The notes beneath the pieces were generated by a model. The model was not told the DNA's origin. It did not search any database and saw only the letters and a list, made by a program, of their open reading frames with translations. This document shows, piece by piece, positions 2,433 to 4,116 of a stretch of 31,026 bases of DNA (position 1 is the first letter of the stretch; every line of letters starts with the position of its first letter). The DNA lies in IMG/VR virus record IMGVR_UViG_2579778802_000007, positions 1 through 31,026 of that record. One strand, given 5' to 3'. Position numbers and translations under genes: made by a program. This DNA is from a virus. Taxonomy: Duplodnaviria > Heunggongvirae > Uroviricota > Caudoviricetes.

Positions 2433-2648
2433 AACCGCAGCACGTTCCTGCATACGACGTGTCTGCGGCATAATCCCAATGATTACTCCCTGACAGGATT
2501 TGCAGGCCACTCAATATCAGGTGCAGTTGATGTATCAACACGATTCAACAATACCCGATATTTATTCCATGCCTCCAGCAACGATCTTTCTTCCTCCGTT
2601 GCGATTTCCAGATCTACAGCATCCTGCAGTGGCGCAATATACTCACTG
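2433..2648. repeat. Direct repeat copy A (~215 bp, ~85-90% identical to 3483-3697): duplicated 3' end of tfa plus downstream hairpin
   Basis: Hand alignment of the two stretches; each starts at AACCGCAGCACGT and runs through ...GGCGCAATAT. Confidence 0.7.
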
Positions 2649-2752
2649 AATTCCTGGATGTAGAACTGTGTGGTGACGGTCTTCCAGCCATTCGGCTCCT
2701 GCTGTATCGAAGCATACCAGGCTATTTCAATATCGCTATGCTGCGGCAGCAT
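2483..2752 (-). CDS. Truncated Tfa-like protein (tail fibre assembly remnant; C-terminal ~50 aa near-identical to Tfa, unrelated N-terminus)
   Basis: C-terminus '[51 protein letters not shown]' vs Tfa '[51 protein letters not shown]'. Confidence 0.55.
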
Positions 2753-2820
2753 TTAACCCCTTGTAATTCATCGCCATAATTGATTTAATTCACAAATAAA
2801 ACTATAACATGGTGAAATCA

Positions 2821-3477
2821 ATGAAAAAAAACACAGATGATGGGGCTAAAATTTACACACCACTTACCCTAAAGCTTTATGACTGGTGGGTTTTGGGAGT
2901 ATCAAATCGGCTTGCATGGGGATGTCCTACAAAGGAACACCTTCTTCCACACTTTCTGGAACATGTAGGTAACAACCATCTGGATATTGGTGTTGGAACT
3001 GGGTTTTACCTTACTCACGTACCTGAGAGTAGTCTGATATCTTTAATGGATTTGAACGAAGCTAGCCTGAACGCGGCATCTACAAGGGCTGGGGAATCAA
3101 AAATTAAACATAAAATTAGCCATGATGTTTTTGAACCTTATCCCGCGGCGTTACATGGTCAATTTGATTCCATTTCCATGTTTTACCTTCTTCACTGCCT
3201 GCCTGGAAATATATCTACAAAAAGCTGTGTAATACGCAATGCGGCGCAGGCCTTAACTGACGATGGAACTCTATACGGAGCCACAATTCTTGGCGATGGA
3301 GTTGTGCACAATAGCTTCGGTCAAAAACTGATGCGCATTTACAATCAGAAAGGCATCTTTTCAAACACAAAAGATTCCGAAGAAGGCTTAACACATATAC
3401 TCTCAGAGCATTTCGAGAATGTTAAAACCAAGGTTCAAGGTACTGTAGTAATGTTTTCCGCTTCAGGGAAAAAATAG
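2821..3477 (+). CDS. Class I SAM-dependent methyltransferase (accessory gene; substrate unknown)
   Basis: Rossmann motif I 'LDIGVGTG'. AT-rich relative to the flanking tail genes. Start placed at ATG 2821 (GGTGA 5 nt upstream); the upstream in-frame ATG 2809 has no SD. Confidence 0.8.
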   Translation: MKKNTDDGAKIYTPLTLKLYDWWVLGVSNRLAWGCPTKEHLLPHFLEHVGNNHLDIGVGTGFYLTHVPESSLISLMDLNEASLNAASTRAGESKIKHKISHDVFEPYPAALHGQFDSISMFYLLHCLPGNISTKSCVIRNAAQALTDDGTLYGATILGDGVVHNSFGQKLMRIYNQKGIFSNTKDSEEGLTHILSEHFENVKTKVQGTVVMFSASGKK

Positions 3478-3482
3478 CATCC

Positions 3483-3697
3483 AACCGCAGCACGTTCTTG
3501 CTTAAGACGTGCTGCGGCATAATCCCAATGATTACTCCCTGACAGGGTTCGTAGGCCACTCAATATCAGGTGCAGTTGATGTATCAACACGGTTCAGCAA
3601 CACCCGATACTTTTTCCAGGCTTCCAGCAATGAGGTTTCTTCCTCCGTTGCAATTTCCAGATCTGCAGCATCCTGAAGCGGCGCAATATGCTCACTG
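3483..3697. repeat. Direct repeat copy B (3' end of intact tfa plus hairpin), partner of 2433-2648
   Basis: See copy A. Confidence 0.7.
3485..3517 (-). terminator. Perfect 11-bp inverted repeat CCGCAGCACGT...ACGTGCTGCGG just past the tfa stop; candidate end of the late tail operon
   Basis: Seen in sequence; on the minus strand a T-rich stretch follows about 10 nt later. The copy-A version of the hairpin is degenerate. Confidence 0.4.
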
Positions 3698-4116
3698 GCT
3701 ACCTGCATCAGGTTGTTTTTTGTTTCTTCCGCCTCCCGGATCCGGAACAGTTTTTCTGCTTCCGTATCCTTCACCCAGGCTGTGCCGTTCCACTTCTGAA
3801 ACTCCCCTTCCGGCGATAACCAGGTAACATTTTCCGGTAACGGACCGAGTTCAGAAATAAATAACTCGTCCCCTGACGCTACGTCATAAACCGTTTTACC
3901 CCGATGGTCTTCAACGAGATGCCACGATGCCTCATCACTGTTGAAAACAGCCACAAAGCCAGCAGGAATATCTGGTGGTGCAATATCGGTACTGTTTGCT
4001 GGCAGACCTGTATGAGGCGGAATATATGCGTCACCTTCACCAATAAATTCATTAGTTCCGGCCAGCAGATTATAAATTTTTATGGTCCGTGCTTGTTCAC
4101 TCATTCTGAATGCCAT
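3532..4116 (-). CDS. tfa: Tail fibre assembly protein Tfa
   Basis: Near-identity to lambda Tfa across the full length ([57 protein letters not shown]...). Confidence 0.95.

Follow-up and report, generated by a model that had tools for sequence, protein, structure and literature searches.

The stretch of DNA analysed here (IMG/VR record IMGVR_UViG_2579778802_000007, a virus of the Caudoviricetes; 31,026 nucleotides, hereafter the window) carries a methyltransferase gene between two copies of the 3' end of tfa, the gene for the tail fibre assembly protein. This locus is no new effector but a module annotated before, that of ybcY: the gene shares 99.0% nucleotide identity with b0562, the ybcY of the cryptic prophage DLP12 in Escherichia coli K-12. 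The account preferred here, to which a probability of about three in four is given, treats the segment as a phage moron of lambda-like prophages: the ybcY module would encode a stand-alone cytoplasmic class I methyltransferase of small molecules or lipids and be moved by recombination through its tfa-derived arms. Such a module would have its own sigma-70 promoter, run convergently to tfa and end at the tfa hairpin, and its place would be the non-essential cargo region that separates attP from the tail-fibre genes. In practice the analysis clarifies what the locus is, as the module has long been annotated. The features on which the argument relies are as follows.

2111-2389, minus strand: 3' remnant of a DUF4376-type tail-fibre chaperone gene, a pseudogene with an in-frame stop (PGAP pseudogene)
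2433-2659: left direct repeat, 227 bp, made up of a hairpin and the last ~59 tfa codons
2434-2467, minus strand: left hairpin, 3' of the stop codon of the partial tfa (tfa'), terminator-like with one bulged T (fold -24.1 kcal/mol, z -3.0; flagged by the terminator scan)
2483-2752, minus strand: fusion open reading frame of 89 amino acids, TfaX-like, phrog_2341
2504-2542: 39-bp block with the same letters in both repeats, the interval of the left-type to right-type switch in 7/7 examined cassette-less alleles
about 2759-3482: cargo segment
2780-2808, plus strand: predicted sigma-70 promoter of the methyltransferase gene, TTGATT-17-TATAAC, within the 56-bp divergent spacer
2821-3477, plus strand: ybcY-type class I S-adenosylmethionine-dependent methyltransferase, 218 amino acids (PGAP start 2809, 222 amino acids)
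3483-3708: right direct repeat, 226 bp, the true tfa 3' end plus hairpin
3485-3517: right hairpin, 11-bp stem, common to the convergent tfa and methyltransferase genes and terminator-like in both directions (minus strand -28.5 kcal/mol, z -4.3; plus strand -23.9 kcal/mol, z -5.6)
3532-4116, minus strand: tfa, full-length tail fibre assembly gene, 194 amino acids (Pfam Caudo_TAP, E = 2e-44; phrog_105)

The ybcY gene between two tfa ends

Aligned by BLASTN, the two repeats agree in 88.5% of 227 columns, with 25 mismatches and 1 gap (E = 2.7e-83), and the homology ends abruptly on both sides. The repeat finder reported the same pair in two parts, 2463-2659 against 3512-3708 (197 nt, 89%) and 2433-2461 against 3483-3511 (29 nt, 90%), which are offset by one indel. 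In both copies the ~59 C-terminal codons belong to the Pfam family Caudo_TAP (tfa). A preliminary description of the window had reported direct repeats of the tfa 3' end around a methyltransferase gene, of about 215 bp and within 2433-3705. This observation is confirmed: the repeats are real and homologous and the interval is accurate, while the size was slightly low. A simple tandem duplication of tfa was ruled out, as the left open reading frame is a fusion and the copies are 11% diverged. Neither inverted repeats (repeat search) nor a recombinase reading frame (list of open reading frames, Pfam) were found within 1900-4300. It was also observed that the Rfam family named IS009 gives a full-length match of 225 bits on the minus strand at 3575-3773, wholly inside the 3' part of the tfa coding sequence and overlapping the right repeat; this family may merely capture tfa sequence that is widely repeated in prophages.

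The methyltransferase reading frame is intact and has a GC content of 41.2%, compared with 48% for tfa and 52.9% for the window. Its product contains motif I (LDIGVGTG) and passed the gathering scores of four Pfam families, namely Methyltransf_12 (37.5 bits, cut-off 30), _23, _25 and _11; the AT-rich class I methyltransferase gene that had been proposed at this place is therefore borne out, and the predicted structure adds a Rossmann-like alpha/beta fold with a seven-strand sheet. The profile phrog_2132, listed in PHROGs with function unknown, matched residues 5-222 over 218/218 of its positions (E = 4e-157), and since it spans 218 residues, the start at ATG 2821 is favoured over the one at 2809. 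On the opposite strand a 45-amino-acid reading frame (3422-3559, minus) covers the 3' end of the methyltransferase gene, the hairpin and the tfa stop codon. It is annotated by PGAP as hypothetical protein WP_001309429.1 and is probably spurious.

The promoter 29-mer does not vary between K-12 and the cassette carriers checked. In a genomic SELEX (systematic evolution of ligands by exponential enrichment) study, TTGATT-17-TATAAC was assigned to ybcY as a constitutive promoter recognized by RpoD; the entry bears an H-NS mark, and tfaX has a divergent promoter there (PMC3946193). The consensus promoter scan chose another, weak site. At the other end, the stop codon of the methyltransferase gene is found 8 nt ahead of the hairpin that also follows tfa. 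A chromosomal homologue from Enterobacter can be aligned at the DNA level with 2759-3448, at 69% nucleotide identity and with the promoter region included; therefore, the cargo carries its own upstream region and nearly fills the space between the hairpin and the left reading frame. As judged from the sequence, this arrangement would allow the methyltransferase to be expressed in the lysogen.

Gain or loss of the module through tfa ends

It had been supposed in the preliminary description that the cassette was acquired or exchanged through the conserved tfa terminus, and a prophage without the cassette supports this. A synthetic cassette-less junction, made by joining 2250-2659 to 3709-3900, was found to be contiguous in 20 genomes. 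In NMBU-W13E19 the prophage occupies the same site and lacks the cassette, and its left flank and tfa body are 100% and its stf 99.93% identical to the window. At the 26 sites that distinguish the repeats, its single tfa end reads LLLLLLLRRRRLLRRRRRRRRRRRRR and is a chimera of both repeats. The switch falls between sites 2503 and 2543 in each of the seven cassette-less alleles examined, so that the presence/absence pair with identical flanks maps the crossover to the 39-bp identical block. Because the cassette-less tfa end switches inside this block, gain or loss of the module can be attributed to the homology of tfa ends. The comparison also speaks for a moron, as the module is dispensable in a prophage with identical flanks and differs in composition (GC 41% vs 53%).

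The left repeat of the window is itself chimeric, with about 2433-2530 of the resident-phage type and about 2530-2659 of the cassette type. To the right of the 39-bp block it is identical to the tfa' arm of phage PhiR26_1 and of DLP12, the tfa' 3' ends of which differ from that of the window, and the limits of homology are at 2506/2528 in other cassette carriers. The length of the repeat accordingly varies by carrier, with 132 bp in PhiR26_1 and 157 bp in K-12. A left crossover in the window would be placed at about 2504-2542. The right repeat is truncated at 3660, 3652, 3648, 3618 or 3549 in other genomes (at least five classes), and in some phages a different fibre module or a Pin invertase region is found to the right of it. 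These truncations and variable neighbours indicate that the right arm is also a mosaic boundary. The most economical reading of these sequences is that a cassette-less prophage acquired the module from a PhiR26_1-like donor, in which case two crossovers would have taken place, one within the tfa' arm and a second within either the right repeat or tfa. A crossover in the 39-bp block that deletes the module is equally feasible.

It was shown experimentally that lambda recombines with Rac and Qin via Red-beta, using stf/tfa homology of 88-96% identity, and that an insertion just after tfa is neutral (PMC3945230). Since both arms of the module are homologous to any lambda-type tfa end, the module is able to enter and leave prophages by ordinary homologous recombination (RecA or Red). 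In the Tfa protein the N-terminal domain, which binds the fibre, is variable, and the C-terminal one, which is helical and serves trimerisation, is conserved (PMC9608196); the repeat matches many tfa alleles because it encodes the conserved C-terminal part.

The presence of tfa 3' ends on both sides of ybcY is explained by its upstream neighbour. In the preliminary description this was a truncated tfa-like reading frame with the same 3' end. The tfa 3' end is real, but the N-terminal ~30 codons come from an unrelated gene. Within the 89 amino acids Caudo_TAP covers residues 31-86 only, corresponding to profile positions 75-130 of 131, and the N-terminal fibre-binding domain of a full tail fibre assembly protein is absent. 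Codons 1 to ~30 (2666-2752) belong to phrog_3893, a small unrelated gene of the b region, which in Klebsiella phage Kp4882-3 is the start of a 79-amino-acid reading frame and in Escherichia phage Ayreon is a truncated one (tblastn, open reading frames). The left reading frame is a dead fusion of the 5' part of a small gene with the conserved C-terminal region of tfa. ybcY is flanked by tfa 3' ends because this dead neighbour carries one.

How the fusion arose can be traced in part through Ayreon (L016, 3739-4087), where a segment equal to window positions 3677-3442 is joined directly to one equal to 2782-2666. The former comprises what is left of a tfa 3' end, together with the hairpin and the 3'-terminal 36 nt of the methyltransferase gene, the latter 30 nt of upstream sequence and the start of the small gene, and the homology stops at 2666, where the tfa homology of the window begins. 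Ayreon was considered as an example of the empty site and rejected; it has undergone an internal deletion of the methyltransferase gene body. From its layout it follows that the older order was tfa, hairpin, ybcY (antisense) and small gene. An old illegitimate join would later have fused the 5' end of this b-region gene to the conserved C-terminal coding part of another tfa. Further to the left, the pseudogene at 2111-2389 is 65% identical to residues 101-193 of a 193-amino-acid DUF4376 protein (tblastn); strain PEC422 has the complete gene for this protein next to a P2-like tail fibre. The pseudogene is an older scar of tail-fibre module exchange, so that chaperone 3' ends from one such exchange after another have come to be stacked in this region.

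The ybcY gene was found in 3832 of 5426 complete E. coli genomes (71%), with up to four copies per genome. Of these genomes, 3437 retain an intact left junction and 2297 an intact right one, and the whole 2.1-kb block 2100-4200 is present in 763 genomes. The carriers include K-12 MG1655, ST131, S88 (an extraintestinal pathogenic E. coli, ExPEC), the avian pathogenic E. coli (APEC) O1/O2/O78, the enteropathogenic E. coli (EPEC) E2348/69 and O157 strains, the inducible lambda-like phages PhiR26_1, PhiR30_1, 2G7b, ev243, Turner and Kati, and phages propagated on K-12 or E. coli C. Homologues of the protein number 2296 at E <= 1e-3, with 90% to 56% identity and all of about 218-224 amino acids, in Citrobacter, Salmonella, Enterobacter, Klebsiella, Yersinia, Erwinia, Aeromonas and other genera. 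Their genes are monocistronic, some at core-like chromosomal positions and some amid prophage debris (DinI, sodC, SopA), and no conserved partner gene was present in the neighbourhoods of eight homologues.

The tail-fibre-distal position had been described as a site for exchangeable cargo, and relatives with a tfa at least 95% identical do hold other cargo after the same hairpin. This was seen in a survey of 80 such IMG/VR loci; only in seven did the sequence extend more than 2 kb downstream. The ybcY module is present in the majority, and in the others different cargo directly follows the tfa hairpin. In six IMG/VR prophages (L052, L083, L085, L088, L103 and L105) PADLOC identified a pair of McrB-like ATPases, a defence-associated reverse transcriptase (DRT RT_UG17), a type II restriction-modification system with PDC-S06 (the restriction-modification system in L103) and a retron RT-TIR XII; a metal ABC-transporter-like cluster and a 1180-amino-acid protein were recognized by reading of open reading frames only. 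Alternative cargo between the same pair of repeats, which the preliminary description proposed to look for, was seen in none of the 80 loci, and no second copy of the tfa 3' end was found beside alternative cargo in their available sequence. As alternative cargo lacks this second copy, the second repeat belongs to the ybcY module rather than to the site.

Several irregular forms of the locus were also observed. Two ybcY modules lie about 5 kb apart on one contig (L069, 6001-12038), a rearranged module has tfa joined to the middle of the methyltransferase gene (L082, 4097-4931), and another has an internal deletion of 176 bp in that gene (L097, 6512-7003). In Turner, PhiR68_2 and EC15 a Pin-type invertase is situated between tfa and the module (L010 6048-6638, L011 5002-5592 and L015 8677-10962), and EC15 also holds an invertible-looking pair of fibre and chaperone genes.

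Function of the enzyme and competing readings

The AlphaFold2 model of the protein has a mean predicted local distance difference test (pLDDT) score of 90, with the first 10 residues disordered. Residues 12-37 are invariant and form a helical lid of the enzyme in the model, and the invariant motifs of the family include YDWWVL and YLLHCLPG. A Foldseek search returned only small-molecule or lipid methyltransferases as neighbours, the top match being PmtA, which is of similar size; similarity was flat over dozens of differing specificities, with no single neighbour standing out. Searches for function with Pfam, NCBIfam, PHROGs, PADLOC and the PDB gave generic methyltransferase matches only, and the NCBIfam matches to CpaM, RquA and PmtA were far under their cut-offs. 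The ratio of non-synonymous to synonymous substitution rates (dN/dS) against the Citrobacter allele is 0.24, and 17/17 sampled alleles are intact. The protein is taken to be a small-molecule or lipid methyltransferase that would be expressed as lysogen cargo, and the methylation of a metabolite or lipid may be its task.

Several points weigh against this account. The sequences alone fit either direction of the event, since the 39-bp block is the expected site of crossing-over for gain and loss alike. The support for the ybcY promoter consists of the binding of RNA polymerase in vitro in K-12, and H-NS may silence it. The right hairpin has no T-run on the plus strand, and a simple terminator scan left this copy unflagged. 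A comparison of E. coli alleles shows no clear deficit of non-synonymous changes, with very small counts, and selection may be weak. In K-12 ybcY is a pseudogene, frameshifted by a 2-nt deletion, for which no phenotype has been reported, and the fold neighbours point to no one substrate. On the function of ybcY the literature yielded only the mapping of its promoter, a statement (data not shown) that a K-12 mutant had no effect in one toxicity assay based on Hha overexpression, and mentions as context.

The preliminary description had envisaged a host-directed effector or a nucleic-acid-modifying enzyme, and the data speak against both. In lambdoid prophages of enterohaemorrhagic E. coli (EHEC) and EPEC, effector genes are located on the distal side of the tail-fibre genes. 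The gene occupies this very position, it occurs in EPEC E2348/69 and O157 strains, and the disordered first residues would suit a host-directed effector of the type III pathway, encoded at an exchangeable effector locus. This is nevertheless hardly credible. Of the complete E. coli genomes 71% carry the gene, among them K-12, ST131, S88 and APEC O1/O2/O78, which are not known to possess the locus of enterocyte effacement (LEE) secretion system, and it also occurs in the phages propagated on K-12 or E. coli C. Stand-alone homologues with 56-68% identity are found in Enterobacter, Citrobacter, Erwinia and Aeromonas, and the invariant residues 12-37 are used for the lid of the enzyme in the model. 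No family of effectors such as the NleE/OspZ methyltransferases was matched in Pfam, which gave generic methyltransferase profiles only, and the fold is that of a Rossmann methyltransferase. Phages often carry orphan methylases, and a true type II restriction-modification system occupies the same site in the relative L103, both of which would fit a DNA or RNA methyltransferase that shields phage DNA from restriction or marks the host genome. This is very unlikely as well: the catalytic motif IV (D/N/S)PP(Y/F/W) or PCQ is absent from the YbcY-type protein, and no DNA-methylase family was matched in Pfam, NCBIfam or PADLOC.

A role in defence or counter-defence, in which the enzyme inactivates an immune signal, a toxin or an antibiotic or modifies an envelope lipid against superinfection, is unlikely, though a case can be made for it. 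Relatives hold defence systems at the same site (DRT UG17, retron RT-TIR, McrB-like, restriction-modification), the fold class includes the toxin-detoxifying enzymes Rv0560c and TmtA as well as the phospholipid N-methyltransferase PmtA, the top Foldseek match, and the gene persists in most E. coli genomes. However, no PADLOC defence component was significant (best match mad2, E = 0.009, 12.9 bits), there is no partner gene, the contexts of the homologues are varied and often non-phage, the K-12 copy is dead, and the structural similarity extends evenly over dozens of unrelated specificities. It is likewise doubtful that YbcY is a working prophage enzyme that methylates a signalling molecule, a toxin or an envelope phospholipid and so brings about phage defence, counter-defence or lysogenic conversion. 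If this were true, an enzyme with portable tfa arms at a defence-filled site would explain the persistence of ybcY in about 70% of E. coli genomes. The last alternative concerns the repeats. Direct repeats around a unique segment could mark an autonomous mobile element, either as a target-site duplication or as a Campbell-type insertion by a site-specific system, and formally the layout equals the single-crossover insertion of a circle with a tfa 3' segment. Such an element is highly improbable, as no recombinase or transposase was found in or beside the cassette (open reading frames, Pfam, PGAP), the 227-bp repeats with their 88.5% identity are far from a target-site duplication, their length differs among carriers (132 bp in PhiR26_1, 157 bp in K-12), and the left arm is a gene fusion. 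On the preferred account, a ybcY moron moved by tfa-end recombination, the interest lies in the enzyme, a prophage methyltransferase that is intact, widespread and located in a hotspot of defence and cargo genes.

Genome setting and comparison with known systems

The gene order of the window looks like that of a lambda-like phage in its vegetative form (or as a tandem prophage). The features around the module are as follows.

up to 884, plus strand: 3' end of the integrase gene
about 928-1050: 3' fragment of ompW, the attachment core, between int and ash
1499-2071, plus strand: ash and a Rha-family gene
4116-7142, minus strand: stf, side tail fibre gene and partner of tfa, 1008 amino acids (list of open reading frames; PGAP annotation of the identical prophage)

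The order is that of a phage circle or of a tandem prophage because the ompW fragment sits between int and ash; the order int-ompW'-ash is likewise present in the chromosomes of strains EC15 and PEC422. After ash and the Rha-family gene, the minus strand holds three successive pieces of tail-fibre chaperones, followed by stf, lom and J. The chromosomal site of the same prophage is ompW, adjoining trp-yciEFG. Three close direct copies of TTTTGCAGAG can be read at 886-925, directly 3' of the integrase stop codon, and may be arm-type binding sites of the integrase. Just upstream of ash and the Rha-family gene, isrK (1277-1351, plus, 72 bits) and the C4 antisense RNA (1376-1463, plus, 76 bits) were found above the Rfam gathering scores. 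This region, adjoining attP, looks like an antisense-controlled antirepressor module of the P1 c4/ant type. The repeat part of stf, which is GC-rich and Ala/Ser-rich, contains long overlapping reading frames in other frames and on the opposite strand, at 5738-6856 (minus) and 5908-6645 (plus); these are most likely artefacts of composition.

As an enzyme, the YbcY-type protein is comparable in fold to the class I methyltransferases PmtA (8ys9), JHAMT (7ec0), BelI (9fce), DhpI (3ou2), Coq5 (4obw) and Rv0560c (7bgg), with an identity of only 11-21%; a substrate cannot be transferred from these neighbours because none stands out. The locus shares with the invertible tail-fibre segments (Mu G, P1 C, e14 P and p15B Min) the presence of extra 3' parts of fibre or chaperone genes downstream of tfa. 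However, the repeats of the window are direct, not inverted, and the segment contains neither an invertase nor an alternative fibre tip. With the lambdoid effector loci of EHEC and EPEC it has in common a cargo that is distal to the tail-fibre genes and varies among related prophages, whereas ybcY is no member of an effector family, occurs mainly in strains without the LEE and has homologues outside phages.

The closest counterpart is the tfaD-ybcY-tfaX region of DLP12 (b0561-b0563), which has the same gene order and orientation and tfa-derived sequence on both sides. It is 97% identical to window positions 2506-3970, and 99% in the methyltransferase gene, with the same promoter 29-mer. It differs in that the K-12 ybcY has the 2-nt deletion, the 3' end of tfaX diverges to the left of 2506, so that the repeat is ~157 bp, stf has been lost, and appY and ompT are downstream in place of DUF4376'-rha-ash-attP of the window. 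The moron is a concept of Hendrix and Juhala, of which bor and lom of lambda are examples. Like these, ybcY is an extra gene of deviant composition that is located in a non-essential region and is missing from an otherwise identical phage; its predicted promoter and terminator-like hairpin would complete the likeness. Unlike them, it has at its flanks a duplicated part of the adjacent essential gene, and this acts as a pair of portable homology arms. The module is a clean natural example of the movement of lambdoid cargo in which a duplicated piece of a structural gene supplies the arms.

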